Shown piece after piece: positions 4,219-36,349 of a DNA stretch of 55,649 nucleotides (positions are counted from its first letter, which is position 1; every line of letters starts with the position of its first letter). Location: assembly GCA_040905925.1 (NCBI GenBank), contig JBBDQO010000018.1, positions 1-55,649 on the forward strand, in the 5' to 3' direction. The translations under genes were made by a program, and so were the position numbers. Below the pieces are notes generated by a model, which saw only the letters and a program-made list of their open reading frames with translations, was not told the DNA's origin and did not search any database. This stretch comes from Acidimicrobiia bacterium. GTDB lineage: Bacteria; Actinomycetota; Acidimicrobiia; Spongiisociales; ZC4RG35.

Positions 4219-4289
4219 GAATAGTGCCTCCTCGCACTTTTTCGTCCTCCCTCAATGGGACGAGGACGAGGTCCATAAATCAGCTCCTA

Positions 4290-4336
4290 CCACAAGATGT
4301 AGTGGTGTGATGGGAAGTGACCACGACATCTGGTAT
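4290..4336. promoter_or_regulatory. Tandem NrdR boxes (operator of nrdJ)
   Basis: CCACAAGATGTAGTGG (4290-4305) and CCACGACATCTGGTAT (4321-4336) both fit the NrdR-box pattern nnaCwAnATnTwGnnn. They start 31 bp apart and lie just downstream of the predicted -10. Confidence 0.7.
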
Positions 4337-4346
4337 GGACTTCATC

Positions 4347-4375
4347 ACTGTAATTACATCCGTGTCATGGGTCAA
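4347..4375 (-). promoter_or_regulatory. SigA-type promoter of nrdJ
   Basis: The minus strand reads TTGACC (4375-4370), a 17-nt spacer, then TACAGT (4352-4347). This sits about 130 nt upstream of the nrdJ ATG. Confidence 0.55.
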
Positions 4376-4628
4376 GCTTTGTTTTTCCACAACCCGGAAA
4401 CGCCTCCTTGAGCGCGAAAATCAACACTCTGATGGGGAAGTGAACGCCACGATCAGCGCTCAGGGGAAGTGGTGGGCACCCTAGATCCGAGGCTGTGCCG
4501 GGGTCCAGTTCCCTGGGTGGAGAGTTTTCGCGAGCGGTCCATGCCGGCGATTCTCAGAGAACCCACATCATTCGCGAGGCTCGCTCCGGCCAGAATCACC
4601 GGGATGCCCACCGTCCTCGTTGTCGACG

Positions 4629-4898
4629 ATGACCGATCGAATCGTTGCGCTCCCTTTGATCCTGCTCCTTGCGGCCTACGCCCGGGTAGGTGGGGTGTCC
4701 GACACCCCGCCCGCCCCAACCGAGACTGCAACGACTGTCGCCTCAACGACGCCCGACGTGACCGAGACCTCGGTTGTGACCTCGACCACTCTCGAGGAGG
4801 GCGCGATCACCGAGGCCGAGGTGGCCGAACTGGAAGCTCTGCTCGACGAAGTCGACGACACCGAGAGCTTGATCGAGGAGCCGTTGCCTGAGGCTTAG
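4629..4898 (+). CDS. Small hypothetical secreted acidic Thr/Glu-rich protein
   Basis: ATG at 4629 (alternative TTG at 4620). There is a hydrophobic N-terminus IVALPLILLLAAYA and high third-position GC. Its 3' end overlaps the dps stop by 4 nt, convergently. Confidence 0.4.
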   Translation: MTDRIVALPLILLLAAYARVGGVSDTPPAPTETATTVASTTPDVTETSVVTSTTLEEGAITEAEVAELEALLDEVDDTESLIEEPLPEA

Positions 4899-5386
4899 GC
4901 CTTGGACTGGACGTGTGCTTCCAGGAACCAGAGGTCCTTGTCAATCTGGCGGGACACTTCGGTGAACAGATCGTTGGTGCTGGTGTCGCCCAGGTCGTCC
5001 GACTCCTCCATGGCGCGCCGGGTGCTGGCCGCGTACTGGGCGATCCGGTCGGCGACCGCCTTGACCGCCTCCATCCCCTCCACCGCCGAGGTCGGGTACT
5101 CAGGGAGTGTCGAGGCTGACGCCGCCTGTCGCACCGTCCCGGTGGCGGTGCCTCCGAGTGTCGTGGCGCGCTCCGCGATCAGGTCCGTGAACTCGAGCAC
5201 GTGGGTCGCGATGTCGTCGAACAGCAGATGGAGCTGGATGAAGTCGGATCCCTTGACGTTCCAATGGGCGTATTTGACCTGGGTGAACAGATCTGTGGTG
5301 TCTGCGAGCTGGCGGTTCAACAGATCCACCAGCTTCATACGAGCACCTTCTGGAATGTCGATGCGGGTCTCGTGGAGTTCGGTCAT
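4895..5386 (-). CDS. dps: Dps-family DNA-binding ferritin-like protein
   Basis: 163 aa. Motifs KYAHWNVKGSDFIQLHLLFDD...DLIAERATTLGG...DLFTEVSRQIDKDLWFLEAH are typical of Dps. Confidence 0.9.
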   Translation of the reverse strand: MTELHETRIDIPEGARMKLVDLLNRQLADTTDLFTQVKYAHWNVKGSDFIQLHLLFDDIATHVLEFTDLIAERATTLGGTATGTVRQAASASTLPEYPTSAVEGMEAVKAVADRIAQYAASTRRAMEESDDLGDTSTNDLFTEVSRQIDKDLWFLEAHVQSKA

Positions 5387-5477
5387 GATGTCATCTCCCG
5401 TTCGCTAGGGGTCTCCCTCGAGGGTAGCTCGCGGTGGATCTTGGGTTTGTGTCGCGGCCGTACGATCGGTCGTCTCG

Positions 5478-5978
5478 TTGCTTTTAGCGGGTGAATGGTC
5501 GTCAGAGCAGATGTTGACCGATAGAGCCATCGGCGGTGCATTCGAGATCTTCTTCAAGGAGATCGAACCCCGTCTCCGTGAGGCGCTTTCCGCCTCCTTG
5601 GGGAGCGACCGGGGCCGGGAAGCCGCGGCCGACGCCCTCGCCTTTGCGTGGGAGCACTGGGACCGGATTCGGGAGATGGACAATCCGACGGGGTATCTCT
5701 ACGTCCTCGGTCGTGATCGGGGTCGGAAAGCTGCCCGACGTCGGGTGGTCACCCTCCTCCCCGTTGACCCGCAGAGGATGCCATGGGTCGAGCCCGGTTT
5801 GGTCGGCGCCCTGGAGCAACTCCCCGAGCGGCAACGGACCGTGGTGGTGTTGCTCTATTGCTTCGAGTGGACGATGGGTGAGACCGCCGCGCTCTTGGGC
5901 CTTTCCAAGTCAACCGTTCAGAGTTACGCCGAGCGCGGGCTTTCCAAGTTGCGAAACCGATTGGGAGTGGAGACATGA
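5478..5978 (+). CDS. ECF-type sigma-70 family RNA polymerase sigma factor
   Basis: Region 2-like AFAWEHWDRIREMDNPTGYLYVLGR and region 4 HTH ERQRTVVVLLYCFEWTMGETAALLGLSKSTVQSYAERGLSKLR. The start is uncertain (TTG 5478 or ATG 5511). Confidence 0.85.
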   Translation: MLLAGEWSSEQMLTDRAIGGAFEIFFKEIEPRLREALSASLGSDRGREAAADALAFAWEHWDRIREMDNPTGYLYVLGRDRGRKAARRRVVTLLPVDPQRMPWVEPGLVGALEQLPERQRTVVVLLYCFEWTMGETAALLGLSKSTVQSYAERGLSKLRNRLGVET

Positions 5979-7291
5979 GCACAGACCTGTTGACCCAACT
6001 CGCTGAGTACGGGCAGTACCACCGGGAGGCCCAGGATCCGATCCCGCCCACGGAGGCGGCACAAGGTGCGGTGACTCCGGTTCCGATGCCTTCGCCTCCT
6101 CGCTACGGGCTGCGACGTCTCGGTGCGGTGTTGATCGCGGCGACGTTGGTCATCCTCGTCATAGCGATCCCGGCTCTGCTCCGGGGTCCGGAAACCGAAG
6201 GTCCGGCCGACTCGGTGGTGGAGACCACACCCCTCGAGGAACCCAGCGCCCCCGTCACCACGGTTGCGCTCATCGAGAGTCCCGATGGCGACGGTTACAC
6301 GACGGTCCACACCCTCAACGACGGCTCCAGGGTGGCTCTCGTCCAAATGAACCTGTGGCGATCCGTGGACGACGGGGAGTCCTGGGAGGAGTGGTACGCC
6401 CTGGATCACGAGATCGATTTGTTCACCGTGGCTCCCGATGGGGCGGTCCTCGCCGTGCGTAGCCCCAACGACCCGATCGAAACTCCTGATTCCGGTTCCA
6501 TGGTCAACGGCACCTCCGAGGTCCATCGCTACGACTCGGCGACCGAAACCTGGAGTGTCATCAACCTGCCCCGACCGGAGCTACCTGACCCTGAGTTGGC
6601 GCCCGCCCCTGCCGACGGGAGTTGCGAGATCACCGGACTCCAGAGCTGGGTCGAAGGCATCGCCATTGTGGTCGGGGAGCAGATCGTGATCCTCGGCGAT
6701 CATCGGGTCGTCGCAGACGGGATCTGTGATCAGGACTTTCAGTTCCTTTGGACCTCCTCGGACGGGATCAATTGGAATCTGGTACCCGAGCTCGGCATCG
6801 ACGGGTATCTGCACGGGATCATATGGGCTGGAGACGGGTACGTCGGCTACGGCTCATCGGTGCCCTCCTATGTCGGCCCCCCAACTCCAGAGCCTCGGGT
6901 CTGGACCGCGACGGACCTGACCTCTTGGAGCGAGCCGACGATCGATCTGACGGCTCTGCCCGAAGACGGAATCGTCAACCCCTGGCTACGAGTCGAGACC
7001 ACGGCTCGCGGTCTCACCTTGACCTATGACGTCGAGCGGTATCGACCCGGACTCGATTCGTCGATCACCGATCTGGCGGATTTGCAGCACTGGGTGATCG
7101 ATGCCGGCTGGACCGAAGGCGATGCCGACGAGTTGGGAGAGATGCTTGAAGGAATGGGTGTGATCTTTCCCCTGGATGAGGCGGAGATCCAGGAGTTGAC
7201 TGGGGGTCTCGACATGAGAGAGCCGATCGGCATTCTCACCCTGACCAGTTCCGACGGAACCGACTGGGAGGCGACCTACACCTCCGACTGA
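5975..7291 (+). CDS. Single-pass membrane protein with an extracytoplasmic Asp-box (BNR-like) repeat domain. Candidate anti-sigma or sensor partner.
   Basis: ATGA overlap with the sigma gene. One TM segment (LGAVLIAATLVILVIAIPALL). SxDxGxxW-like motifs: RSVDDGESW, TSSDGINW, TSSDGTDW. Confidence 0.7.
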   Translation: MSTDLLTQLAEYGQYHREAQDPIPPTEAAQGAVTPVPMPSPPRYGLRRLGAVLIAATLVILVIAIPALLRGPETEGPADSVVETTPLEEPSAPVTTVALIESPDGDGYTTVHTLNDGSRVALVQMNLWRSVDDGESWEEWYALDHEIDLFTVAPDGAVLAVRSPNDPIETPDSGSMVNGTSEVHRYDSATETWSVINLPRPELPDPELAPAPADGSCEITGLQSWVEGIAIVVGEQIVILGDHRVVADGICDQDFQFLWTSSDGINWNLVPELGIDGYLHGIIWAGDGYVGYGSSVPSYVGPPTPEPRVWTATDLTSWSEPTIDLTALPEDGIVNPWLRVETTARGLTLTYDVERYRPGLDSSITDLADLQHWVIDAGWTEGDADELGEMLEGMGVIFPLDEAEIQELTGGLDMREPIGILTLTSSDGTDWEATYTSD

Positions 7292-7331
7292 TCCCCCCAG
7301 TAGCGGATCATGAGAGATGCTTCGGGACCGC

Positions 7332-7370
7332 GGAAGACCCCGGCCCGCGGAACCGGGGTCTTCCGTTTGT
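7332..7370. terminator. Intrinsic terminator hairpin between convergent genes
   Basis: Perfect 12-bp stem GGAAGACCCCGG (7332-7343) / CCGGGGTCTTCC (7353-7364) with a 9-nt loop, followed by GTTTGTG. Confidence 0.7.
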
Positions 7371-7375
7371 GGGAC

Positions 7376-7567
7376 TCAGGTCTGTTCGCCGGCTCGCCCT
7401 AGCGAACCGATGACGACCGCGAGTCCGAGGACCACGAGGGCCAGTGGGCCAACAACAGTCAGGTCCGAGATCCGGAGCGTCCACACCTCGAGTGCCTCGA
7501 GGAGAAAGCCGATCCCGATTCCCAGGTAGATCACTCCTGCGAACAGTGTGCCTTTGTGAAGTCTCAT
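7376..7567 (-). CDS. Small two-TM membrane protein (LiaI/LiaF-TM-like)
   Basis: 63 aa with two hydrophobic helices. Its start has a 4-nt overlap with the upstream LiaF-like gene. Confidence 0.6.
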   Translation of the reverse strand: MRLHKGTLFAGVIYLGIGIGFLLEALEVWTLRISDLTVVGPLALVVLGLAVVIGSLGRAGEQT

Positions 7568-8214
7568 CTCTCCACCTTGATGTTTCCTGCCGCGACGTCG
7601 AGTTCGAGCGTCAGCGTCACTGTGGCGGAATCGAATCCGTCACTGGTGTAGGTATCGCTCACCGAAATCCCGTTGTCGATCTCTCCGAACAGATCGATCT
7701 GGCCGGCGCCTGCTGACGCATCGATGTCCACAGGGACACCGGGTGGCAACATGATCGTGAGATCACCTGCGCCGACTGTGGCTTCGATCTCTGCCGGCTC
7801 GGTCATGGTGAGGTCACTCAAGTCGAGCGTCAACTCGCCCAACCCCACGTTGTATTGGTCTGCCAGGTTGGCCTGGTTGGTGACTCGGATGTTCCGCTCA
7901 CCGATCCCTCCATTGAATGCGTCGGGGGGTATCGCTGCAACCGCAACGACTGCGAGTGTCACGAAGACCCCGGCAACGATCAGACCCGTGTGCGGGCCGT
8001 CGAAGGAGCCGATGATCAGGGCCAGGCCAATAACCGCAAGCACTACCGGCAGCACCATCGCCGCCCGCAGCTCGATCACGTCGATGACGTCGAGCAGCCA
8101 AAGCCCGCCGACGACGATCAGAAGTGCCCCGGTGACAATCGCTCCGTAGCGACCGCGCTTGGGCGGGGGGACCATGGTGGTCTCGGGTCTCTCGAGTGTG
8201 TCAGTTGTGCTCAC
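7564..8214 (-). CDS. LiaF-like (cell-wall-active antibiotic response) membrane protein
   Basis: N-terminal TM helices plus a C-terminal beta-rich repeat, GELTLDLSDL...GAGDLTIMLP...GAGQIDLFG...AAGNIKV, as in the LiaF/DUF2154 C-terminal domain. Confidence 0.65.
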   Translation of the reverse strand: MSTTDTLERPETTMVPPPKRGRYGAIVTGALLIVVGGLWLLDVIDVIELRAAMVLPVVLAVIGLALIIGSFDGPHTGLIVAGVFVTLAVVAVAAIPPDAFNGGIGERNIRVTNQANLADQYNVGLGELTLDLSDLTMTEPAEIEATVGAGDLTIMLPPGVPVDIDASAGAGQIDLFGEIDNGISVSDTYTSDGFDSATVTLTLELDVAAGNIKVER

Positions 8215-8635
8215 GACGACTCCCTAGATAGAGCATCCCGGCGCCGGCGGCGATGACGGCCACGGGCCACATCACTCTGTCGAACCAGGGCACCAGGGTG
8301 TTGACCAAAAACACCAGCCCAATGCCGATCAGGGCGACTCCGGCCACTATTGGCCCCTGCGCCCCGCTTTCGGCATTTCGCACCGCCAGGGTCTCTCCCG
8401 GGCGGGCTTCAGGGATGATGAGCCACGAGATCAGGTAGATCAGGATGCCGGCCCCACCCGCAACGGTGACGACCACAAATCCCAACCTGAACCACAACGG
8501 ATCCGTGTTGAAATACCGGCCCAACCCGCCACAGACACCGGCGATCACTCGATCCTCGGTGCTCCGGCGAAGCCGCGCCTGCGGCTGGCCGGCCTGGACG
8601 ACGGGTGGGCCCGTTTCGAGCTGCGTCATACGCAA
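8201..8635 (-). CDS. PspC domain-containing membrane protein
   Basis: VIAGVCGGLGRYFNTDPLWFRLGFVVVTVAGGAGILIYLISWLIIPE is a canonical PspC domain. Confidence 0.85.
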   Translation of the reverse strand: MRMTQLETGPPVVQAGQPQARLRRSTEDRVIAGVCGGLGRYFNTDPLWFRLGFVVVTVAGGAGILIYLISWLIIPEARPGETLAVRNAESGAQGPIVAGVALIGIGLVFLVNTLVPWFDRVMWPVAVIAAGAGMLYLGSRREHN

Positions 8636-8817
8636 CCTCCTTTGGCCTGAACATGCCCCGAATCTGGGTCGGGTGGCCAGAGCCGAAAGTCACCGATGGC
8701 CAGGATTAGGACGGAAAAGTCGATCGCCGCTCGCTTAGGGTCCCGCCCAGGACTGTCTTGCGCCTCTATTCGCAATAGCCGTCCGGTGTTCCAATGAAAT
8801 GGGAAATAGGAGGTGAT

Positions 8818-9171
8818 ATGAGCTACTCAGGCCATATCGGCGGCGGGTTTGATCTGTCCAACGGGGCCCATTCGGTTCCTGACGCAGATCGGGCCAATCT
8901 GTTCGGTTGGGTCTCGCTCTCGGTGGTGGTTTTGATGTGGGCCGGGTTTGGGATCGCGATGTGGGCGGCTCCGGCCACCCTCACCGATATTTGGGAACGG
9001 GCCGGCGACTTGTCGATGGCCTTCAAGGTCATCGTCTGGGTCCTCGGGCTTCCGTGGATGATCGGGCTGGCTGTGTTGCAGGCGGGATGGTCCGAATCGG
9101 TTCGGGTCGCTTTGGTGGCGGGTCTGGCCCTGGTCAGCGTGTGGACCTTCTACCCGAACCGACAGCGCTGA
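8818..9171 (+). CDS. Hypothetical membrane protein
   Basis: ATG 8818 is preceded by an AGGAGG RBS (the track start 8794 is less likely). Three predicted TM helices. Confidence 0.55.
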   Translation: MSYSGHIGGGFDLSNGAHSVPDADRANLFGWVSLSVVVLMWAGFGIAMWAAPATLTDIWERAGDLSMAFKVIVWVLGLPWMIGLAVLQAGWSESVRVALVAGLALVSVWTFYPNRQR

Positions 9172-25902: not shown

Positions 25903-26907
25903 TCAGCCGGCCAGCGTCGTGGTCGTGACCGCCCCGTCTTCGGGGGGAGGGGCTCCTTCCTCCCCCTCGGGCCCCGGCTCCTCAGGGGCGACGCCACAAT
26001 CGACCAGGGCCTGATCAGGATCCTCCCCGCCAAAGCGCACTCTCTCGAAGGTGACCACTGCCGCCAGTTGCTCTTCGCTGAGAGAGGGGTGGGGAGGCAT
26101 GTCTGCGCCGCTGCCACGGAGCGGCTTGCCGGTGTCCCCATAGGTGGTCCGACCTGCCGCCTGGAAACCGCTCGTTCCGAGCCGCACCCACTCCATGTGA
26201 TCGGTGCAGGCCCCAAAGGTCGTCAGCACACCACTCAGAGCTGGTCCGACGCCTCCGCCACCGCTCGCGCCGTGACAAGCGGCGCAGGTGGCACCTTCCC
26301 CGTGGTAGATCCTGTCACCGAGTGCCACGTAGTCGATGCCACCACCACCTGCCCCCGAACCGGTGAACTCCGATCCGTCGCAGTTGACGATCTGCCCGCT
26401 CACGACGTCCGCCTGCAGCTCCGTGGCCTCGCCGCAGATGCCGGTTGCCGAGCCTCCGAGCGCGAATAGGGCAAACAGGGGGATGATCAACATCACCGCG
26501 GCCAGCCATCTGGGGAACACGAAATTCGTCCTCTCCCGGATCCCGGCGGTGGGCACAGTGACCACCTCGGGGAGATTGGCTGCTTCGGCCGCCGACACCT
26601 CCGCGGGAACCGGGGCTCGGGTAGTCACTCCGGGTGCAGCAGGCGGGACCTGAGGCGCCGGTGCCGTGGCCTCGGCCACCGGAGCCGCCGTCTCGGTGAC
26701 CGGTTCCGGTTCGGTTGGCGCCGCGGCTGCGGGCTCCTCGGTCGCGGGCAGAGGAGCTTCTCCGGCAACTGTCCCACCACCGGCCCAAGCAGTTAGGACT
26801 TCGTCGACGGTCATCTCGGTCGCGGTGGCGCGGGCGGCGGCCGAGCGTCGGACCAGGGCCTCGGGAACGCCCAGGGCGGCGGCTGCGGCGGCGACGAGAT
26901 CACTCAC
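25903..26907 (-). CDS. Membrane-anchored class I c-type cytochrome (CcoP-like, monoheme) with an N-terminal RSAxARA module
   Basis: CAACHGASGGG...GPAL...MPPHP. One TM segment (WLAAVMLIIPLFALFALGG). GTGA overlap with the upstream gene. Confidence 0.8.
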   Translation of the reverse strand: MSDLVAAAAAALGVPEALVRRSAAARATATEMTVDEVLTAWAGGGTVAGEAPLPATEEPAAAAPTEPEPVTETAAPVAEATAPAPQVPPAAPGVTTRAPVPAEVSAAEAANLPEVVTVPTAGIRERTNFVFPRWLAAVMLIIPLFALFALGGSATGICGEATELQADVVSGQIVNCDGSEFTGSGAGGGGIDYVALGDRIYHGEGATCAACHGASGGGGVGPALSGVLTTFGACTDHMEWVRLGTSGFQAAGRTTYGDTGKPLRGSGADMPPHPSLSEEQLAAVVTFERVRFGGEDPDQALVDCGVAPEEPGPEGEEGAPPPEDGAVTTTTLAG

Positions 26908-27746
26908 GGTTGAGTCCCGGCATCGGTTGTTTGGCCGGTGGTCTCCTCGGCTGGCGACGCCACCTGACCCGGAGCGGTGGTGGTCGACTCGAGGAGATAG
27001 GCCACCAGGTCGTCCAGGTCGGAACTGGAAAGGACCTCCCCGGGATGATCGCCGAGCCCGATGATGATGGCTTCGATCTGACTGTCGGTGAGACGGGTGC
27101 CGACATCGGAGAGATCAGGCCCGAAACGACGTGCGCCGAGCACCTGGTTGGAGTCGTTGAGAGTGACCGCGCCCAGGCCGACGTCAGAGACGACGGGACG
27201 GACCATCTGGGTGTGACAGGACCCGCACCCGAGGTTCTCATAGATGTCCTTCCCCTGCAGACCGGCTTCGCTGTAGCTGATCGCACTGGTCCGGGCCCCC
27301 GGATTCTCGCTTGCGATCGATGGGCCGACCAGACCGACCAGCAACACCGCAACGAAGAGCCCGACGACACCCGCCAGCACTGTCATCGGGCGGTCCGGTT
27401 CCCCGACCAGCACCGGTGGTTTGCCCGACCGGGCGGGTCCAGGTGGGGCGGGCGGCTGTGGAGTGGCCGGGGGCAGGATGTCCCCCTGCGTTGCGAGGGT
27501 CGGCGTCTCGTCGACCGCGGGGGGTGCAGGCGGAGGCTCACTCTCCACCTCTGCCGGGACGCCGTCGGCCTCGGCGGCACTCGCCGGAGCCGGAGCCGGG
27601 GCCTCGATCGACCCGCCGCCGGCCCAGGCGGCCAGGACCTCGTCCACCGTCATCCCGGAGGCGGAGGCCCGTGCCTCGGCCGATCTCTTGACCAGGGCCT
27701 CGGGGGTGCCCAGGGCGGCGGCGGCGGCGGCGAGCAGGTCACTCAT
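26904..27746 (-). CDS. CcoO/FixO-like monoheme cytochrome c subunit with an N-terminal RSAxARA module
   Basis: GKDIYENLGCGSCHTQMVRP...RRFGPDLSDVGTR...LDDLVAYL resembles cbb3 subunit II. The start is taken at ATG 27746 by homology to the paralogous N-terminus. Confidence 0.75.
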   Translation of the reverse strand: MSDLLAAAAAALGTPEALVKRSAEARASASGMTVDEVLAAWAGGGSIEAPAPAPASAAEADGVPAEVESEPPPAPPAVDETPTLATQGDILPPATPQPPAPPGPARSGKPPVLVGEPDRPMTVLAGVVGLFVAVLLVGLVGPSIASENPGARTSAISYSEAGLQGKDIYENLGCGSCHTQMVRPVVSDVGLGAVTLNDSNQVLGARRFGPDLSDVGTRLTDSQIEAIIIGLGDHPGEVLSSSDLDDLVAYLLESTTTAPGQVASPAEETTGQTTDAGTQP

Positions 27747-29214
27747 CGGAATCGCCACCTACGGTCACCTGCCAGGTCCCTTGACGACCTTGCTCGTCGT
27801 AGACCAGCACCTCCTGGGGCACGGCCCGACCCGAGGTGACGGTGCCGATCACCGCGGAGGCGTAGGCCAGTTGGCCCACGAAGGCGATGATCGCGAAAAC
27901 GAAGGCGATGAGGAGCAGGGGATCGGCAGCCGAGGCGCCGGCGGCCCAGCCGTCTCCGGCGTTGACATAGGCGGCGCTGTTGGATCCGGCCAACCAGGAG
28001 TAACCGCTGACGATCCCGGCTCCCCCCATCGTGACCAGCACCCCACCGACACCGATCACGGTCAGTCTCTGGAATGAGCGGGCCCGGTCGGTCGATTGCA
28101 TGGCACGCCCGGTCACCCGGGGCAGCGCGTCGAAACTCACCCCCGCGACCAGCAACGGGCCCACACCGAGCAGGCAGGAGTACTCGATGGCTTCCCAGAA
28201 GGAGGTCAAGGCGGTCACCGAGCCGATCGCCCGGAATGAGGCGAGACTGGCCATCGCTGCCACCACCACACCGAGGAAGGTGCCAACCACGCCGGAGGAG
28301 ACGCCGGGTCGGTCAGCCACCCGGTCCCAATGGCCCTGAAGGGTGAGGGACACATTCGATGCGTTGGCGAGCGCACCGATGGGGAAGGCCAGGCCGAGAG
28401 CCGCGGCGACCGCATCGACCCATCCGGGCCCGGGACCGAACACCAGTTGGGCGACACCCCACCACACCGCGGCAAATCCGAGCGACCAGAAGCCGGCCAC
28501 GGCGAGCTGGCGTGAAGCCAGAGCCACGTCGGCCTCCTTGACCAGGGTGTAATAGAAGAGACCGGTCCCAACGGTGAAGACCCACATCGTGACGAAGCCC
28601 GCCGAGAAGAAGAGACCCGAGTAGGTCTGGGTGAGGGAATCGGCGAAGGGGAGGGTTCCGACGATGTGGGCGGCGAAAAGGAGTGGAAGCCAAGTCACGC
28701 CACCCATCACGAACCAGAGGGTCACGTAGGTCCGCTTCTCCTCACGGCGGGTGATCGTCGCCACGGTGTTTAGCGCGGGCAACGACAGAGCGAGCAACAG
28801 CGGCACGTCCAGCCACCAGGGGAGGCCGAGCGGTTGCAGACCGTCGCCGAAACCGAGAGCGATTGCCCCCAGACCCGCCAGCACCAGCGCGACCAACAGC
28901 ACCAGCCCACCGCGGGCCATGGCGACGCTTCGCAGCGGGGCTCCGGTGAGACGGGGCAGGACGTAGTAGATCCCACCGAGCAGCGAGATCACCAGGAAGC
29001 CGATCATCAGGGTGAGGTTGGCCATCGGCTCCAATCGACCCAGACTCATCGGAGACAGGCCCCCGAAGCGCATCGCGAAGTGGGCAAGGACTTCGAGGAG
29101 ACCACCCAGGACCAGGAACATCGCGCCAACGAGGAAGTGGGCTGCCGCAATACGATCCTCGTCGGCCCCGCCCCCGAGGAACGCTCGAATGTCTGCTTGT
29201 TGCCTGGTCGCCAC
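27739..29214 (-). CDS. Heme-copper oxidase subunit I (cbb3 CcoN)-like 12-TM protein lacking all canonical His ligands
   Basis: GTG 29214 with an AAGGA RBS. Contains LGRLEPMANLTLMIGF..GGIYYVLPRLTG and LQGHWDRVADRP, alignable to CcoN blocks. Only 4 His in 491 aa, with no HH pair and no HxH. Confidence 0.65.
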   Translation of the reverse strand: MATRQQADIRAFLGGGADEDRIAAAHFLVGAMFLVLGGLLEVLAHFAMRFGGLSPMSLGRLEPMANLTLMIGFLVISLLGGIYYVLPRLTGAPLRSVAMARGGLVLLVALVLAGLGAIALGFGDGLQPLGLPWWLDVPLLLALSLPALNTVATITRREEKRTYVTLWFVMGGVTWLPLLFAAHIVGTLPFADSLTQTYSGLFFSAGFVTMWVFTVGTGLFYYTLVKEADVALASRQLAVAGFWSLGFAAVWWGVAQLVFGPGPGWVDAVAAALGLAFPIGALANASNVSLTLQGHWDRVADRPGVSSGVVGTFLGVVVAAMASLASFRAIGSVTALTSFWEAIEYSCLLGVGPLLVAGVSFDALPRVTGRAMQSTDRARSFQRLTVIGVGGVLVTMGGAGIVSGYSWLAGSNSAAYVNAGDGWAAGASAADPLLLIAFVFAIIAFVGQLAYASAVIGTVTSGRAVPQEVLVYDEQGRQGTWQVTVGGDSDE

Positions 29215-29379
29215 CGGATTCCTTGTTCAGGACAGGACGGCGGGAGCATAACTACTTCGCCGGCTCGTTCCGTCCTCGGACAAAACCAGGGGTGGGCCCG
29301 ATTCGGGTTCTCTAGGCCGAGCCCGGTTATGGTAGAAACGGGCCGACAGCCAGTTGATCCGCGCCCGAAACAACACCAG

Positions 29380-30012
29380 ATGTACCGACTCGCAGAACTG
29401 AGCGACAGCACCCGCAGGAAAGCAGGCTGGGGAATGCTCCTGCTCGGGACCGTGCTGTTGGCGGTGGGAGTGGTGTGGATCCACTTCTCGAGTCTGTCCG
29501 AGACGGTCATGGTGGACGGTGTGGCGGTTCCACTGGTCGTCGACTACTTCAACTGGTGGCCCCGGGGTGTTTTGTGGCAGGGCGCCGGCTATCTGGTGGT
29601 GTTCGCCGCTTCTCAAATGATGATTGGTGGCGCCGTCTTCCTCTGGGTGCTCAATCAGAGGATGACCTGGTCGCGTGCGGTGTTCACCGCCTACCTGACC
29701 TGGCTGGAGTTGGTGATCATCTTTGGCATGGTCCCCTCCGAATGGCTCAGCTTCGCCCAGACCGACCTCGATTGGTCTACCCAGAGGGTCGCTCTCGTGG
29801 TGCCGCCGATCCTGGTGCTGGGGAACTCGGTCGAGGTCAGTTACGGCATGCTCAAGGACTCGATCTCGATGGGCTACCACCTGGTCATGCTTGGTGCAGG
29901 AGCGGTCTTCACCCTCGAGGTGCAGAAGATGAGGAAGGGCCGCCCGGCTGCTGCGGAGAAGCCTGAGAAGAAGTCGCCTTACGGTCGTCCCCTGGTCAAG
30001 GGAGGCACCTGA
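29380..30012 (+). CDS. Hypothetical polytopic membrane protein, first gene of the Rieske/cytochrome b operon
   Basis: ATG 29380 (the track start 28834 is antisense to the CcoN-like gene). Four or five TM helices. TGATG junction with the ferredoxin gene. Confidence 0.6.
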   Translation: MYRLAELSDSTRRKAGWGMLLLGTVLLAVGVVWIHFSSLSETVMVDGVAVPLVVDYFNWWPRGVLWQGAGYLVVFAASQMMIGGAVFLWVLNQRMTWSRAVFTAYLTWLELVIIFGMVPSEWLSFAQTDLDWSTQRVALVVPPILVLGNSVEVSYGMLKDSISMGYHLVMLGAGAVFTLEVQKMRKGRPAAAEKPEKKSPYGRPLVKGGT

Positions 30013-30461
30013 TGGTGCGCGGCGTCGTCGACGAGACCCCGCCGATCCGGGATGACTACCAGCTCGCGGTGGTCGAGGGTGACTATTTCACCGACAAGCT
30101 CCGCCCCAAGCAGTTCCTCCACATCGACCAGTCGGAGTGCATCCTCTGTGAGGGCTGTGTCGACATCTGCCCCTGGAAGTGCATCCACTATCTCTCACTG
30201 GATGCCATCACCGAGGGGGTGAACGTGGACCACCCCGCCGACGACCCCCAGAACCTGGGGTTCTTCATCGTCGACGAGGACGAGTGCACCCGCTGCGCTT
30301 TGTGTGTCGATCGCTGTCCGACCAATGTGATCTCGCTCGGAAAGTTCGAAGGCTCCCTGGCCGACCAGGCCGTCGAGCTCGGGCTGGACCGCCGGCCCTG
30401 GGATTTCGACACCGGGCAACGTGACTTCAAGAATGGGTATGCGTACGGGATGCGCTGGTAG
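30012..30461 (+). CDS. 2x[4Fe-4S] ferredoxin-domain protein
   Basis: [12 protein letters not shown] and [12 protein letters not shown]. Confidence 0.8.
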
Positions 30462-30469
30462 GAGAGGTT

Positions 30470-31246
30470 TTGGCTAACGGCAACGGCAAAGTCGGTCTCA
30501 TCGACCGTATGAAGGAGGCGAACGAGAAGCTGTGGGGGTCCCAACTCGCCGAATCGATCCTCCGCCCCGGCTCCCCCTTCAAGAAGGGCTATTCGGACAG
30601 CCCGAGGAACCGCTCCTACGTGGTGATGAACAACGTCCTCTATCACCTGCATCCGGTCAAGGTGAAACGCCACGGGGTCAGGCTCTCCTACACGTTGTGC
30701 CTGGGCGGTCTCAGCTTCTTCCTCTTCATCCTGCTCACCATCACCGGCATCTTCCTCATGTTCTATTACACCCAATCGGCGGAAAGGGCCTATGCCGACA
30801 TCGAGGCGTTGTCGACCAATGTGGCCTTTGGTTCCCTGGTGCGGAACATGCACCGCTGGGGCGCCCATCTCATGGTGTTGACCGTGTTCCTCCACATGAG
30901 CCGGGTCTTCTATCACGGTGCCTACAAGCCGCCCCGTGAGTTCAACTGGGTGGTGGGTGTTGTCTTGCTCTTCCTCACCTTGCTCCTCTCCTTCTCCGGC
31001 TATCTGCTCCCCTGGGACCAGTTGGCGCTTTGGGCCGTCACTGTCGGCACCAACATGGCGGGGTTCGTCCCCGTCGTCGGAGCCCAGGTCAAGTTCGCTC
31101 TGTTGGGCGGGGTGGAGGTCTCCGCGGCCACTTTGCTCCGGTTCTACGTGCTCCACGTCCTGGCCCTGCCATTCATCCTCGTGATCTTCCTCGCCGTTCA
31201 TTTCTGGCGGGTGCGCAAGGACGGCGGGATCTCGGGCCCTCTTTAA
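30470..31246 (+). CDS. Cytochrome b6-type (N-terminal four-helix) cytochrome b
   Basis: GGAGAGG RBS then TTG 30470. Contains [38 protein letters not shown] and [23 protein letters not shown], giving two His pairs 13 residues apart. Confidence 0.88.
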
Positions 31247-31257
31247 GGACGATCGAA

Positions 31258-32361
31258 ATGACAGAGATACCAGAGAGTCTTCTCAGAAGGTCGGCAGAGG
31301 CCAAGGCCAAGGCCCTCGGCCTCTCGGTGGAGCAGGTGCTCGCCGAGATGAAGGGCGAGGCGCCTCCGGCCCTGCCCTCGGCCGCGGAACCCGAGCCGGA
31401 GGAGGCGGTCCTCGAAGAAGCTGTCGAGGAGGTTCCGCCTGCCGTCGGGCCCCCGGTCGAGAACCCGGTGGTTGAGGTCGCATCCGAGCCCGTGGTCACA
31501 CCCGAGGCGCCTCATGCTGCGCCCGCCGTGGCTTCGGAGCCCCCCGAGCCCGAACCGGACCAAGAGGCCGCTGAGGCCGCTGAGGTCTCCGAATCCGAGA
31601 TGGGGGAGACACCGGAACCCCAGGATGCGCCCGCTCCCGCGGTCGAGGCCGCGGAGGAACCGGCCGCGGTCGAGGACCTTCCCGCGGCCGCGGTCGAGGC
31701 CGCGGAGGAACCGGCCGCGGTGGCCGGGGTGATCGACGAATCGGCGCCGGCAGCCGAGGGGGACGGGGCCGGCAACGGGAAGGTCGCTGCCACCGTCAGC
31801 CCACGGCCAGTGGTGCCACCGGCCGGCACCCCGGAGGGCGTGCGCACCCAGCGACTGCTGACGGTGGTCAAGGCCCGGGCGATTCAAACCGTCAAGGCCG
31901 AGCCCACTGACAAGGTGAACACCTGGCCCCATCTGATGCTCATGGAGTTCGGGGCGCTGCTCGCGATCACAGGGTTCTTGGTGATCCTGGCGGTGATCAT
32001 CCATTCGCCACTGTTGGCGCCGGCCAACTTCAACTCCACTCCCAACCCTTCCAAGGCGCCCTGGTACTTCCTCGGCCTCCAGGAGTTGCTGTCCTATTTC
32101 GACCCCCAGATCGCAGGCGTGACCGTGCCCACGATCACCGGGATGATCGGGTTCATGATGGTCCCCTACGTTGACAAGAACCCGTCGACACGGCCCAGCG
32201 ACCGCAAGTTCGCCATAGCCCTCTATTCGACGTTCCTCGCCGGGGCGGCCACCCTCACCATCATCGGGGTGCTGTTCAGAGGACGGGGATTCAACTTCTC
32301 CTACCCCTGGAAGGACGGGGTCTTCTTCGACGACCTCAAGGACTGGGTGCAATTCGAATGA
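31258..32361 (+). CDS. Cytochrome b C-terminal / b6f subunit IV-like protein with a long N-terminal acidic extension
   Basis: ATG 31258. About 200 aa of E/P/A-rich sequence, then WPHLMLMEF...PNPSKAPWYFLGLQELL (PEWY-type motif) and three TM helices. Confidence 0.8.
   Translation: MTEIPESLLRRSAEAKAKALGLSVEQVLAEMKGEAPPALPSAAEPEPEEAVLEEAVEEVPPAVGPPVENPVVEVASEPVVTPEAPHAAPAVASEPPEPEPDQEAAEAAEVSESEMGETPEPQDAPAPAVEAAEEPAAVEDLPAAAVEAAEEPAAVAGVIDESAPAAEGDGAGNGKVAATVSPRPVVPPAGTPEGVRTQRLLTVVKARAIQTVKAEPTDKVNTWPHLMLMEFGALLAITGFLVILAVIIHSPLLAPANFNSTPNPSKAPWYFLGLQELLSYFDPQIAGVTVPTITGMIGFMMVPYVDKNPSTRPSDRKFAIALYSTFLAGAATLTIIGVLFRGRGFNFSYPWKDGVFFDDLKDWVQFE
31638..31721 (+). repeat. Direct 33-bp repeat with a 51-bp period inside the acidic linker
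   Basis: CGCGGTCGAGGCCGCGGAGGAACCGGCCGCGGT occurs at 31638-31670 and again at 31689-31721. It encodes AVEAAEEPAAV twice. Confidence 0.85.
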
Positions 32362-33236
32362 GTGCGACCAACCTCGCCCTGATCGGCGTCGCCGTGGTCG
32401 CGATATTTGGCGCTATCGGCGCCTTTGCCGTGGCCTTTCGCCGGTCACAGGGCGGAGTCCGCAAGCAGGCAGATCCCACCGCGGGTGTCTCGCCCGAGAC
32501 CAGGTCTGCCGATCGATCGATGGAAGGCGTTTCGGTGGCGCCGGTTGCGGTCGAGGAGGTGGAGCCGGAACCGGAACCGGAGCCGGAGCCGGAGGACGAG
32601 GCCGAAGTCGAGCATGCCGGGGTCCAGATAGTCCAGACCCAGCGGGTCGTCGAGGTTTCGCCCGAAGAAGGCGGGGTCACCAGACGTCAGTTCTTCAACC
32701 GTGCGATCACAGCCACCTTCGGGTCGTTTCTGGCATTGCAGGGCATCTACTACCTGGCCTTTTTCTGGCCCAAGCTGACCGGGGGCTTCGGCGCCGATAT
32801 CGACGCCGGTCTGATCACCGATCTCGAGACCCAGGTGCACACCTCGGACGGCGCCATCCTCCCCCTCTTCATCCCCGAGGCCAAGGCCTATGTGGTGCCG
32901 GCTCCGCCGTCGTTGTCCGAGCAGTTCGCCGACCAGCGGGTGGAGGCCGGAGGGCTGATGGCCCTTTTCCAACGTTGTGTCCATCTCGGTTGTCGGGTGC
33001 CGTGGTGTGGCCCCTCGCAGGGGTTCGAATGCCCTTGCCATGGCTCCAAGTACAACGCAGTCGGTGAGTACTTCGGGGGGCCGGCTCCTCGCAACCTCGA
33101 CCGGTTCGTGGTCGAGTTGGTGGACGACAGGTTCATCATCAAGACCGGCACTGTGATCCAGACTCCACGCGCCCCCACTCTCTCGCTCGACTACCCCCAG
33201 GGCCCGAGCTGTATCTCCATCGTCACTGAAGAATGA
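32358..33236 (+). CDS. Rieske [2Fe-2S] iron-sulfur subunit
   Basis: CVHLGCRV...CPCHGSKY. Tat-like TRRQFFNRA. N-terminal extra TM and an EPEPEPEPEPEDE linker. ATGA overlap with the upstream gene. Confidence 0.9.
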   Translation: MSATNLALIGVAVVAIFGAIGAFAVAFRRSQGGVRKQADPTAGVSPETRSADRSMEGVSVAPVAVEEVEPEPEPEPEPEDEAEVEHAGVQIVQTQRVVEVSPEEGGVTRRQFFNRAITATFGSFLALQGIYYLAFFWPKLTGGFGADIDAGLITDLETQVHTSDGAILPLFIPEAKAYVVPAPPSLSEQFADQRVEAGGLMALFQRCVHLGCRVPWCGPSQGFECPCHGSKYNAVGEYFGGPAPRNLDRFVVELVDDRFIIKTGTVIQTPRAPTLSLDYPQGPSCISIVTEE

Positions 33237-35137
33237 CCGCGAACCTGATAACGGTGTTTGCGCTGGTGGTCGGGATCGTGTGGCTCGGCGTGCTCTTCGC
33301 TTCGGCGATCCGCAACCGGGGTGGGGAAGAGGTCGCCCCCAATCTCAAACCAGGGATCACCGACCAGGAGATGGAGACCCGGCGACTCGAGGGTGGGCAG
33401 AAGGCGGCGATCGCCTTCTCGGCTTTTCTCGCCATCTCGCTTCCCCTCTATTTCCTCGGTGAGACGGGTCGGCAGGAGAACTTCGTCGACGAGTTCGAGG
33501 TGGCGGCGCAAGAGCGCGGGGCCCTAATCGTCGAGGAGTTCCGGTGTTTCGACTGCCACGGCCCGGAGGGGGTGGGGGGGACTGCCCGCTATGTGGAGAA
33601 ACGCTCCGGAGTGACCGTCTCCTGGGCAGCGCCCTCTCTCAACGACATCCTCTTCCGGTATGAGGAGGCCGAGGTCAACTTCTGGGTTACCTACGGTCGA
33701 GGCAATACACCGATGCCGGCCTGGGGCCTTCCTGGCGGCGGCCCTCTGACCGAGGCCCAGGTGTCGGATGTCGTCAGCTATCTGACAACCATCCAGGTGC
33801 CCCAGAACGATGCTCTGGCCGAGTTGGAGCCGGGAATCGAGGTCCAGCTCGACCGGCTCGAGACGGCGGAGGCGACGGTGACCACGGCCATCATCAATCA
33901 GGCCCAGGTTGTCGCCAACATCGTTGCCGCCCCCGCGAGATTGGTGATCGTGGACCCACTCGCCAAGCGAGCCGGTGACCTCCTCGATGACGCCGGCGAA
34001 GGCCTGGACACCGACGATGACGGTCTGTCCGATGTCGCCGAGGAGGAGCTGTCGGCGATTTCGGTCGAGGCTCTCGAAGCACTGACGGTGGTGCAGCCGA
34101 TCGCACTCGATCCAGAGACGCCAGATGCCGAGCTGGCTGAGGAGGCAGTGTTCTCGTTGGAGGAGTCGCTCGAGATCGCCCCCGTTCTCGAGATCTACCT
34201 CGATGCGATCCAATTGGCGATCGTGGAAGGGACGGTCGACCCCGCGGTTGGGATCAGCGAAGGGGCGATCACCGAGTTGGAGCCGATTGCCGCCGCAGCC
34301 GCCGATCTGGGCGTGACGGTGCCGCCGGCGATTCAGGACCTGGCCGACGCCGAGGATTTGGTCGCAGCCCTCGACGAGGCCGCCGCCGCCGAGACACCTG
34401 TTGAGGGTGCAGCGGCTCTCGCCGCACAGGCTGGCGCCTCGGTGACCGCCGGGTCCGACTCCGATGGGGACGGGCTCTCGACCGCCGCCGAAGAAGACAT
34501 CAGCAACCAGATGACCGAGGCCAACGTGTCCACGATCCCTGGTGGTCTGAGTGCGATCAGCCTCGACCCCACCAACCCGGCTTCGGTGGGCGGGGAGCCG
34601 GACAGCGCGACGGCTGCCACGATGGTGGGCAGGCTGGAGTCGCTCCACACCTCTCTGCAGGTCACCTCCGACAACATCGACAAGCTCCGGGAACAGGAGG
34701 TCGGTGGTCTCGAGTTCCTCGAGGCCGCCCAAGACACCGGCGCCTGGGAGATCGACTTCGAAGGCGTAGCCGAGGCGATGGGCGCCGAAGTCGAAACGGC
34801 GCAACGCGCGGCGGGGTTGTTCAACTCCAACTGCGCCCGGTGCCACACCGCCGGGTTCAGTGCCGGGGTGCCCTTCACCCAGGAGGCCGGGTCCGGCGGC
34901 TTTGGACCTGCCCTCTGGGATGGTCGTCCGACCGTGCAATTCGGCGAGGTGAGCGAGAATCCGGAAGACGACCTGTTGGTCAGGTTCTTGACCCGCGGAT
35001 CGGAAGCCCAGACTCCTTACGGGCTCAACGGCTTTGGCTCGGGTCGAATGCCGGCGTTTGGCGCCATTCTCAGCGAGGCGGACATCGAGCTTCTCGCCGC
35101 CTATCTACGTGGGGGCAATATGGACGGGAAGGGTTGA
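33233..35137 (+). CDS. Membrane-anchored diheme c-type cytochrome with a ~330-aa acidic insertion
   Basis: CFDCHG (33545-) and CARCHT (34832-). The domains are separated by D/E/A-rich sequence carrying DTDDDGLSD (34007-34033) and DSDGDGLST (34457-34483). Confidence 0.85.
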   Translation: MTANLITVFALVVGIVWLGVLFASAIRNRGGEEVAPNLKPGITDQEMETRRLEGGQKAAIAFSAFLAISLPLYFLGETGRQENFVDEFEVAAQERGALIVEEFRCFDCHGPEGVGGTARYVEKRSGVTVSWAAPSLNDILFRYEEAEVNFWVTYGRGNTPMPAWGLPGGGPLTEAQVSDVVSYLTTIQVPQNDALAELEPGIEVQLDRLETAEATVTTAIINQAQVVANIVAAPARLVIVDPLAKRAGDLLDDAGEGLDTDDDGLSDVAEEELSAISVEALEALTVVQPIALDPETPDAELAEEAVFSLEESLEIAPVLEIYLDAIQLAIVEGTVDPAVGISEGAITELEPIAAAAADLGVTVPPAIQDLADAEDLVAALDEAAAAETPVEGAAALAAQAGASVTAGSDSDGDGLSTAAEEDISNQMTEANVSTIPGGLSAISLDPTNPASVGGEPDSATAATMVGRLESLHTSLQVTSDNIDKLREQEVGGLEFLEAAQDTGAWEIDFEGVAEAMGAEVETAQRAAGLFNSNCARCHTAGFSAGVPFTQEAGSGGFGPALWDGRPTVQFGEVSENPEDDLLVRFLTRGSEAQTPYGLNGFGSGRMPAFGAILSEADIELLAAYLRGGNMDGKG

Positions 35138-35139
35138 CG

Positions 35140-35529
35140 ATGTCCGTGGTCATGGCACAGGGCGATTTCTTCCGGGAGTTCTTCCGCTCCCTCTTCTCCG
35201 CCAACCTGTTCGTCACGGGCGTGATCCTGACGATCGGGGCGGTTCTTCTTTTCTATGGCTCGATCTACCTGTTCAACGCCACCAACCTCGGGAAGAGGCT
35301 CGGGTTCCTGGTGACCGGGGCCGCCTTGTTCGGATGGCTGACCATCACCTCGATGCTCTTTGTGATCTACGCCCCACGGGGACCGAAGCCGGACAACATC
35401 GAAGGGCTCAACGCGGTCGAGATCCGCATCATCCCGGTCACCTATCTGCTGGTGTCCCTGGTGCTCTTCCTGGTGTTCCTGGTGGCCCTACACCAATACG
35501 AAGAGCTCCAGGAGAAGTCGAGCCGATGA
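35140..35529 (+). CDS. Small three-to-four-TM membrane protein, last gene of the Rieske/cytochrome b operon
   Basis: ATG 35140 lies 3 nt after the cytochrome c stop. 129 aa, hydrophobic. Confidence 0.6.
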   Translation: MSVVMAQGDFFREFFRSLFSANLFVTGVILTIGAVLLFYGSIYLFNATNLGKRLGFLVTGAALFGWLTITSMLFVIYAPRGPKPDNIEGLNAVEIRIIPVTYLLVSLVLFLVFLVALHQYEELQEKSSR

Positions 35530-35657: not shown

Positions 35658-36269
35658 TCACCTATTCCCGTAGTAGCTCAATACCTGGAGCTCCATCGAC
35701 AGGTCCACCTGACGCACCGTGACGTTGTCAGGGACGTTGACCAGGACCGGTGCGAAATTGAGGATGGAATTGATCCCAAGGGCCACCAGACGGTCGGTCA
35801 CCTGTTGGGCTGCGACCGCGGGCACGGCGAGGATCGCCATGTCGAAACATCCGCCCCGACAATCGCTATCCATGTCGTGGAGGTTCCGCACCTCCACCCG
35901 GCCCGCCCGGGAGCCGACTTTTCGGGTGTCGGTGTCGTAGACCGCAGCCACGTCGAAGCCCCGCCGGCTCAACCCAGCGTATGCCGCCAGTGCCCTTCCC
36001 AGGTTCCCGGCACCGATGATGGCGACCTGGCGGCGGTCGGCGATCCCCAGCTCCTGACGAATCCGGTGCCTCAGGTCGGCCACCGAGTATCCGACACCCC
36101 GGACCCCGTGAAAGTCGAGATGGGAGAGGTCACGCCGGACGTTGGCAGCATTGGCGCCGGCCGCCTCGGCCAACTCCTCGGAACTGACGGTCTCCTTGGA
36201 TTGGAAGTCCTCGAGCAATCGAAGGTACCGGGGGAGTCGGACCACGGTCGCCTTGGGAAGCTCACTCAT
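35658..36269 (-). CDS. rex: Redox-sensing transcriptional repressor Rex
   Basis: TVVRLPRYLRLLE...SSEELA...VRRDLS and Rossmann motif VAIIGAGNLGRALA. Start taken at MSELPK (36269). Confidence 0.9.
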   Translation of the reverse strand: MSELPKATVVRLPRYLRLLEDFQSKETVSSEELAEAAGANAANVRRDLSHLDFHGVRGVGYSVADLRHRIRQELGIADRRQVAIIGAGNLGRALAAYAGLSRRGFDVAAVYDTDTRKVGSRAGRVEVRNLHDMDSDCRGGCFDMAILAVPAVAAQQVTDRLVALGINSILNFAPVLVNVPDNVTVRQVDLSMELQVLSYYGNR

Positions 36270-36349
36270 CGCGGGCGACGTTAGACCTTCTGCCTCGATT
36301 CCCAGCTCGAAGGGTTCTTGCTCGATGCCAACCTCTAACCTGACCACCT

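Follow-up and report, generated by a model that had tools for sequence, protein, structure and literature searches.

A shared three-helix N-terminal domain on respiratory membrane proteins of two divergent operons in Acidimicrobiia

The window analysed here is a 55,649-nucleotide stretch of DNA from an uncultured Acidimicrobiia bacterium (GenBank assembly GCA_040905925.1, contig JBBDQO010000018.1, positions 1 to 55,649 of the forward strand). It holds two divergent respiratory operons, one encoding a CcoN-like protein, a CcoO-like protein (P2) and a membrane-anchored cytochrome c (P1) on the minus strand, the other encoding a cytochrome b6, a PetD/subunit IV-like protein (P3) and a Rieske protein on the plus strand. 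P1, P2 and P3 begin with a shared head, hereafter the module, which is an independently folding domain of ~42 residues without previous annotation (core motif G-x-P-E-x-L-V-x-R-S-A-x-A-[RK]-A-x-x-x-G-x-x-V-[DE]-x-[VI]-L-x-x-[WM]-x-G-G). Coordinates of the genes, modules and linkers are collected in Table 1.

The likeness of the three heads was assessed within the window by using the 35-residue head of P3 as the sole query against 1118 six-frame segments. This search retrieved P2 (phmmer E 3.8e-6; composition-corrected blastp 8e-7) and P1 (E 5e-4), and the next match after these had E > 1. The local alignment of P3 with P2 scored 13.9 standard deviations above 5000 shuffles, and a hidden Markov model (HMM) built from the three copies found no fourth copy in the window. 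The three starts are fixed not by the similarity alone but by gene packing, with overlapping stops and a ribosome-binding site. The GTG of P1 at 26907 overlaps the P2 stop as GTGA and is the earliest possible start downstream of the in-frame upstream stop; the ATG of P2 at 27746 gives an overlap of 8 nt with the end of the CcoN-like gene; and the ATG of P3 has AAGGA 8 nt upstream and the cytochrome b6 stop 12 nt upstream.

Downstream of the heads, the three proteins belong to recognisable families. P2 exceeds the threshold of Pfam FixO (PF02433; 42.4 bits, cutoff 29.6) and falls short of the ccoO equivalog of NCBIfam (37 bits, cutoff 200.65). P3, whose gene lies directly downstream of the split cytochrome b6 gene (30470-31246), passes Pfam Cytochrom_B_C (PF00032; 28 bits, cutoff 20.7) and has an ExtQ-like match in NCBIfam. 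In both cases it is the C-terminal part that matches the canonical family: the FixO model aligns from residue 127 of P2 and the Cytochrom_B_C model from residue 255 of P3, which places the heads and linkers outside the canonical CcoO and PetD families. Canonical CcoO/CcoP and b6f PetD begin near their transmembrane (TM) helix, whereas the first 120-250 residues of P2 and P3 are extra. P1, with its one CxxCH motif, is a class I cytochrome c with a membrane anchor and has no match to NCBIfam ccoP (TIGR00782); it is thus monohaem, unlike the dihaem CcoP. A single CxxCH was found in 68/68 orthologues of P1 and in 65/65 orthologues of P2.

All three heads run into an acidic Pro/Ala/Glu-rich stretch of 73-180 residues (Ala 19-28%, Pro 17-29%), which is followed by the first hydrophobic helix. 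Basic residues flank the N-terminal side of this helix, and the CcoO and PetD families have an established topology with cytoplasmic N-termini (N-in); on both grounds the module is placed on the cytoplasmic side. The original prediction, made from the DNA of the window, had described the three heads, the order of module, linker and first TM helix, the cytoplasmic side and the lack of such a head in canonical CcoO and PetD, and in each of these respects our analysis agrees with it; its CcoP-like label for P1 gives way to that of a monohaem anchored cytochrome c. Within the subunit IV linker, positions 31637-31721 form an in-frame tandem repeat (27-bp unit, 3.3 copies), and in the Rieske gene (GGAGCC)5.7 at 32561-32594 encodes an (EP)n run. 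Such in-frame linker repeats suggest that linker lengths evolve fast. A Tat signal was considered for the heads and rejected: there is an RR motif with no hydrophobic region after it, P2 has KR instead, and the module lies ~100 residues from the TM helix.

The fold was predicted with AlphaFold2. Using a 13-sequence alignment, the P2 head was modelled as a three-helix bundle (H2-12, H16-30 and H34-41; mean pLDDT 94), and a natural two-module protein modelled from its single sequence showed the same three helices in both modules, joined by a linker with pLDDT < 50. Two flavours of the module can be told apart. The W-type has Trp at profile position 40 in 73/73 modules on the cytochrome c, CcoO-like and F5 proteins (F5 being a polytopic family described below) and includes helix 0; the M/L-type has Met or Leu at this position in most modules of subunit IV and of the small 3-TM subunit, and its N-terminal copy is without helix 0.

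Conservation was measured in 439 unique copies of the module from public data, in which P14, R20, S21, A22, A24, A26, G30, L37 and G42 are 92-99% conserved, with R20 and S21 at 96-97%. Helical periodicity suggests that packing of the bundle falls to the small invariant residues (S21/A24/A28 and A22/A26), and that R20, E23, R/K25 and K27 are left on the exposed face as a candidate binding surface. The strong conservation of R20 and S21 could also be read as a phosphorylation or other modification site, at which Ser/Thr kinases or FHA-type readers would tune the respiratory chain; the stromal N-terminus of chloroplast PetD, which is a kinase-interaction region, offers a precedent. We nevertheless consider a regulatory receiver of this kind very unlikely, since S21 lies within a helix, its neighbours A22, A24 and A26 look structural, and the conserved neighbouring genes include no kinase or FHA gene.

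Selection on the module was compared with that on the remainder of each protein as median identity to the window proteins, using orthologues from 55-67 other loci. For P3 (55 orthologues for the module) the values were 91% in the module, 85% in the TM and redox domain and 47% in the linker; for P1 they were 73%, 65% and 55%, and for P2 71%, 63% and 41%, respectively. The module is therefore at least as conserved among orthologues as the membrane and redox domains, and far more so than the linker. Within the window, the modules of P1 and P2 are identical at 37/45 residues, and 15 of those 37 are on different codons, so conservation acts on the protein and not on DNA or RNA. Together, fold, conservation and codon differences identify the module as a genuine, translated and selectively maintained domain. 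An RNA-level or translation-initiation element was likewise rejected, given the free variation at synonymous sites and the existence of internal copies.

Table 1. Coordinates of the module-bearing genes and neighbouring features in the window
Feature	Position	Strand	Description or basis
P1 gene	25903..26907	minus	Module, linker, one TM helix (residues 135-153) and single-CxxCH cytochrome c domain; Pfam Cytochrom_C 26.8 bits, hydropathy
P1 W-type module, 45 residues, three helices, N-terminal	26773..26907	minus	69 bits, three-copy HMM
P1 acidic Pro/Ala/Glu/Thr-rich linker, residues 46-125, net charge -9	26533..26772	minus	Composition
P2 gene, CcoO/FixO-like	26904..27746	minus	Module, linker, TM helix (residues 123-141) and FixO-type monohaem domain
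P2 W-type module, 45 residues, N-terminal	27612..27746	minus	71 bits, three-copy HMM; AlphaFold2 three-helix bundle
P2 acidic Pro/Ala-rich linker, residues 46-118, net charge -9	27393..27611	minus	Composition
CcoN-like 12-TM protein	27739..29214	minus	First gene of the minus-strand operon; no module; Pfam COX1 and TIGR ccoN matches far below cutoff
P3 gene, PetD/subunit IV-like	31258..32361	plus	Module, linker and PetD-type membrane domain
P3 M-type module, 35 residues, two-helix version without helix 0, N-terminal	31258..31362	plus	67 bits, three-copy HMM
P3 acidic Ala/Glu/Pro/Val-rich linker, residues 36-215, net charge -31	31363..31902	plus	Composition; contains the 27-bp tandem repeat
Operon housing P3	29371..35529	plus	Membrane protein, 2x[4Fe-4S] ferredoxin, cytochrome b6, subunit IV, Rieske protein, dihaem cytochrome c, small 3-TM protein (35140-35529)

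To collect further carriers, a profile of 13 modules was searched against 1.84 billion representative proteins, which yielded 425 clusters at E ≤ 1e-3 and 260 at E ≤ 1e-10. All classifiable carriers among the best 150 fall into five membrane-protein families, and the module is confined, among these classifiable carriers, to respiratory membrane proteins. The families are cytochrome b subunit IV (1-5 copies of the module); homologues of the small 3-TM protein encoded last in the plus-strand operon (3-7 copies, the window's own member having none); CcoO-like proteins (1 copy); anchored monohaem cytochromes c (1-5 copies); and F5 (e.g. P0091), whose members are polytopic, ~400 residues long and without a Pfam domain, and begin with a W-type module. 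The remaining carriers among the best 150 are contig-end or frameshifted fragments of the same five families. In public databases the carrier proteins bear only the names 'mono/diheme cytochrome c family protein' or 'hypothetical'.

Public gene calls often truncate or split the carrier genes inside the Pro/Ala-rich linkers, so that many 46-74-residue 'orphan' peptides consist of the module alone and many subunit IV entries start within the linker. The apparently 'module-less' entries from a PetD-domain search, among those listed at an identity of at least 80%, are N-terminal fragments. These habits of gene calling, together with the Ala-rich composition of the segment, are what might be said for an artefact, that is, for chance Ala/Arg-rich low complexity or for an untranslated region upstream of miscalled starts, the two ways in which the original prediction had said it could fail. 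The first is answered by the shuffle score, the composition-corrected E-values and the 425 clusters, and the second by starts that overlapping stops and a ribosome-binding site determine; synonymous variation alongside amino-acid conservation and the fragmentary nature of proteins 'without' the module point the same way, and we take an artefact to be refuted.

Many carriers contain 2-7 tandem modules separated by Pro/Ala-rich linkers. One protein (P0025) has seven, and another (P0026) shows recent duplications of unit plus linker that are repeated almost exactly. Such arrays, of which the original prediction had made no mention, speak for a binding module that is tethered and multivalent and not for a fixed structural contact. 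The gene for F5 lies beside, and convergent with, a caa3-type oxidase operon (COX2-cytochrome c, COX1, COX3, COX4_pro, CtaG and haem O synthase) in three loci (L080, 8001-9206; L009, 9866-11161; L011, 9875-11161). One protein of this family, P0109, terminates in a sulfocyanin-like cupredoxin.

Scanning the species-representative genomes yielded at least 340 confirmed stretches, and the locus counts that follow were taken from the best 79 loci. These are labelled almost all as Acidimicrobiia or Actinomycetota metagenome-assembled genomes, and one of them (L001, Acidimicrobiia bacterium SMAG_U7928) matches the window at 100% identity. In roughly 55 of the 79, subunit IV is encoded on one strand and the CcoO-like protein and cytochrome c on the other, with a module on each. 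The ligand-less CcoN-like gene co-occurred with the module in every locus examined.

The CcoN-like protein was aligned with a reference chain (6xkw_n) to locate the ligands of haem b, haem b3 and CuB. The five ligand columns that can be aligned have no His, and the sixth falls in a deletion; the six His ligands of a functional cbb3 CcoN are thus not found in the window's protein, and no His occurs at the ligand columns in 62/62 CcoN-like orthologues. Because these ligands are gone while P1 and P2 keep one CxxCH each, we regard the oxidase-like complex as a conserved derivative of cbb3, catalytically dead but with two c-type haems retained. On the plus strand, the 2x[4Fe-4S] ferredoxin gene (30012-30461) lies directly upstream of the split cytochrome b6 gene, and the two products have 86% and 87% identity among orthologues, respectively. 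With 301 bits, the cytochrome b6 exceeds the cutoff of NCBIfam ExtP (290 bits), ExtP being the cytochrome b of the Geobacter selenite/tellurite cluster. The dihaem cytochrome c of the same operon (33233-35137, plus strand) has haem domains at residues ~94-187 and 522-625, separated by an acidic, Ala/Leu-rich insert of ~330 residues. Directly downstream of this bc-type operon lies a gene for a Rex-type redox-sensing repressor (35658-36347, minus strand), and in another locus (L082) a Rex-type gene (3837-4460) adjoins that for a five-module membrane protein. No Rex operator (TGTGA-N6-TCACA) was found in the divergent promoter region (29215-29370), and the single match in the window lies elsewhere, at chance level.

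The behaviour of the module at the level of the complex was examined through the two W-type modules of P1 and P2. Their identity is 80.3% within a genome and 68.5% between genomes (0/2000 permutations reach the observed value; p < 0.0005), and the within-genome likeness also exceeds that among orthologues (67-72%). Codon identity at identical residues was 55% within genomes against a baseline of 44-46%, and exceeded 80% in 6-7 genomes. From within-genome likeness and codon identity together, we conclude that the two W-type modules of one complex are kept equivalent, partly through gene conversion. In one locus (L081), a single 640-residue chain that bears no module (7075-8997, plus strand) is a fusion of the CcoN-like with the CcoO-like protein, and the adjacent cytochrome c has four modules; it seems to matter that the complex displays modules, not which subunit bears them. 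The copy number of the module is variable, and its position is interchangeable between subunits of one complex. Between the two operons of L081 lie a gene for a 534-residue multicopper/cupredoxin protein (NirK-like; 4636-6240, plus strand) and one for an Rrf2 regulator.

These arrangements also bear on the idea that the module is a cis-acting folding, solubility or targeting cap for nascent chains with long acidic tails, with no role in the mature complex. The module is always found at the extreme N-terminus of N-in membrane proteins and is thus made first, as such an aid to biogenesis would be. However, internal tandem copies, up to seven of them, cannot all be N-terminal signals; the fused CcoN-CcoO chain of L081 inserts without a module; the window's small subunit has none although its homologues have 3-7; and the module is more conserved than the catalytic domains. 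We therefore hold a purely biogenetic role to be quite unlikely.

Library, structure and literature searches were performed to place the domain. The heads had no Pfam-A or NCBIfam match when full proteins were searched, and for 42 diverse isolated modules no Pfam or NCBIfam family was assigned at E ≤ 10. Sequence and profile searches of the PDB with the module returned nothing significant, and Foldseek with the AlphaFold2 module model against the PDB returned designed helical repeats alone, at E > 0.7, with no UBA among them. Our full-text searches of the literature turned up neither the module nor the ligand-less CcoN-like complex.

Among the closest known systems is the peripheral-subunit-binding domain (PSBD) of the 2-oxo-acid dehydrogenase E2 chains (Pfam E3_binding, PF02817), likewise a helical mini-domain of 35-45 residues set between long flexible Ala/Pro-rich linkers, with conserved arginines on its first long helix. 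The PSBD serves as a docking site for other proteins on a large assembly; for the module, docking is a proposal. The PSBD consists of two helices and a structured loop and is present once per chain, within a soluble enzyme core, whereas the module is built of three helices, is present in 1-7 copies and is attached to membrane subunits through a tether. Searches gave no match to E3_binding in the 42 modules and none in the PDB, and hhalign gave a probability of 0.5% against a PSBD comparison sequence, to be taken as a lead only. Bundles of the UBA and TS-N type share the size and the three short helices, a generic likeness that is not diagnostic. The helix-1/helix-2 junction of the module, 'A-L-G-x-P-E-x-L-V', resembles the UBA loop 'LGFPESLV', and hhalign against a UBA sequence, likewise a lead only, gave 38.7% probability over just the 13 columns of this 'ALGxPExLV' junction. 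Pfam UBA (PF00627) had no match in the 42 modules at E ≤ 10, and the module differs from UBA by its longer middle helix (15 residues). Sticker-and-spacer scaffolds, such as the SSUL repeats of carboxysomal CcmM and the cohesin arrays of scaffoldins, also combine a small folded module in variable repeats with disordered linkers, and their copy number shifts fast by tandem duplication; they differ in fold and cellular context, the module array being anchored to energy-transducing membrane complexes.

The same searches touch on whether the segment 'A-x-x-x-G-x-S-V-x-x-V', which looks like a helix-turn-helix (HTH), could bind DNA or RNA and so tether nucleic acid or the nucleoid to the membrane. 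Pfam HTH_23 matched 2/42 modules, the better at E 0.008, and a designed CAP repeat matches 'AExxAxxLGxSVDE'. Such an anchor is highly improbable: no HTH profile match was significant, the third helix is short (~8 residues), acidic and hydrophobic (VDEVLAAW) where a basic recognition helix would be expected, and the tethers are strongly acidic.

We favour the reading of the module as a tethered, multivalent protein-docking domain, to which we give about an even chance. In its favour count the fold, the strong selection, the confinement to respiratory membrane proteins, the multivalency, the behaviour at the level of the complex and the topology. The module sits at the cytoplasmic end of a long, acidic, disordered Pro/Ala/Glu tether on the N-termini of membrane-anchored respiratory subunits, and each complex would hang one to several alike 'hooks' into the cytoplasm, where they may capture a common soluble partner or one another. 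The outcome would be a shared handle on the Rieske/cytochrome b6 complex, the ligand-less cbb3-like complex and the caa3-associated membrane protein, which could serve assembly, clustering or regulation. That the module binds something, and what it binds, we infer; the logic would be analogous to that of the PSBD on its Ala/Pro linkers or of multivalent sticker-and-spacer scaffolds. The original prediction had proposed a common docking, assembly or regulatory domain that ties the oxidase-like complex to the Rieske/cytochrome b complex; of this, a cytoplasmic, respiratory-chain-specific module common to both gene clusters stands, which supports the proposal in part; the physical tie between the complexes is conjectural.

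Several observations weigh against docking. The searches of Pfam, the PDB, Foldseek and hhalign found no homology to any known docking domain. In the model of the natural two-module protein there was no confident packing of module on module (pTM 0.39), which is weak evidence as the model was built from a single sequence. No within-genome co-variation of W-type and M-type modules was detected (p 0.21 and 0.09), at low power as the M-type barely varies (93% between orthologues). Finally, the likeness of P1 and P2 modules within genomes is at least partly gene conversion, as seen in the 6-7 genomes with codon identity above 80%.

Two of these observations also count against a special case of docking, in which the modules form a zipper: W-type modules of the cbb3-like cytochromes and F5 would bind M-type modules of the bc-type complex, or each type would self-associate, and the complexes would be cross-linked into supercomplexes or membrane patches without a soluble partner. 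This would suit the split of the two flavours largely by complex, the multivalency supplied by tandem arrays, the adjacent and divergent position of the two operons in ~55/79 loci, and the N-terminal M-type copy without helix 0, which could take a helix in trans. Yet M-type and W-type do not co-vary, adjacent modules are not confidently packed, and W-type copies occur on some subunit IV relatives; such a zipper is on balance unlikely, though it deserves more weight than a biogenetic, regulatory or nucleic-acid-binding role.

What is new here is an unannotated domain family on at least five families of respiratory membrane proteins of Acidimicrobiia; the complexes themselves are of known kinds. 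The module family deserves a Pfam/InterPro entry, and its recognition would mend many truncated or split gene calls in metagenomes. Acidimicrobiia abound in soils, oceans, sponges and wastewater, and we know of no biochemical study of their respiratory chain. As a molecular tag, the module marks proteins that form a set within this chain: those of the bc-type complex and of the ligand-less cbb3-like complex, and the F5 protein, polytopic and uncharacterised, that is encoded beside the caa3 oxidase. If the docking handle is real, it would mean that respiratory complexes are coordinated through flexible, multivalent tethers on their cytoplasmic side, an arrangement that, to our knowledge, has not been described for any respiratory chain. 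A bolder reading, which we put forward tentatively and think less probable than docking as such by a wide step, is that the whole aerobic electron-transport chain of Acidimicrobiia is organised by this cytoplasmic tether system into a respirasome or membrane patch, with copy number (1-7) tuning valency. Three-helix hooks on acidic leashes, binding one another or a common hub protein, would then join the caa3 oxidase with the Rieske/cytochrome b6 complex and with the catalytically dead cytochrome scaffold derived from cbb3. If so, respiratory supercomplexes would be organised on a new principle, from outside the plane of the membrane.

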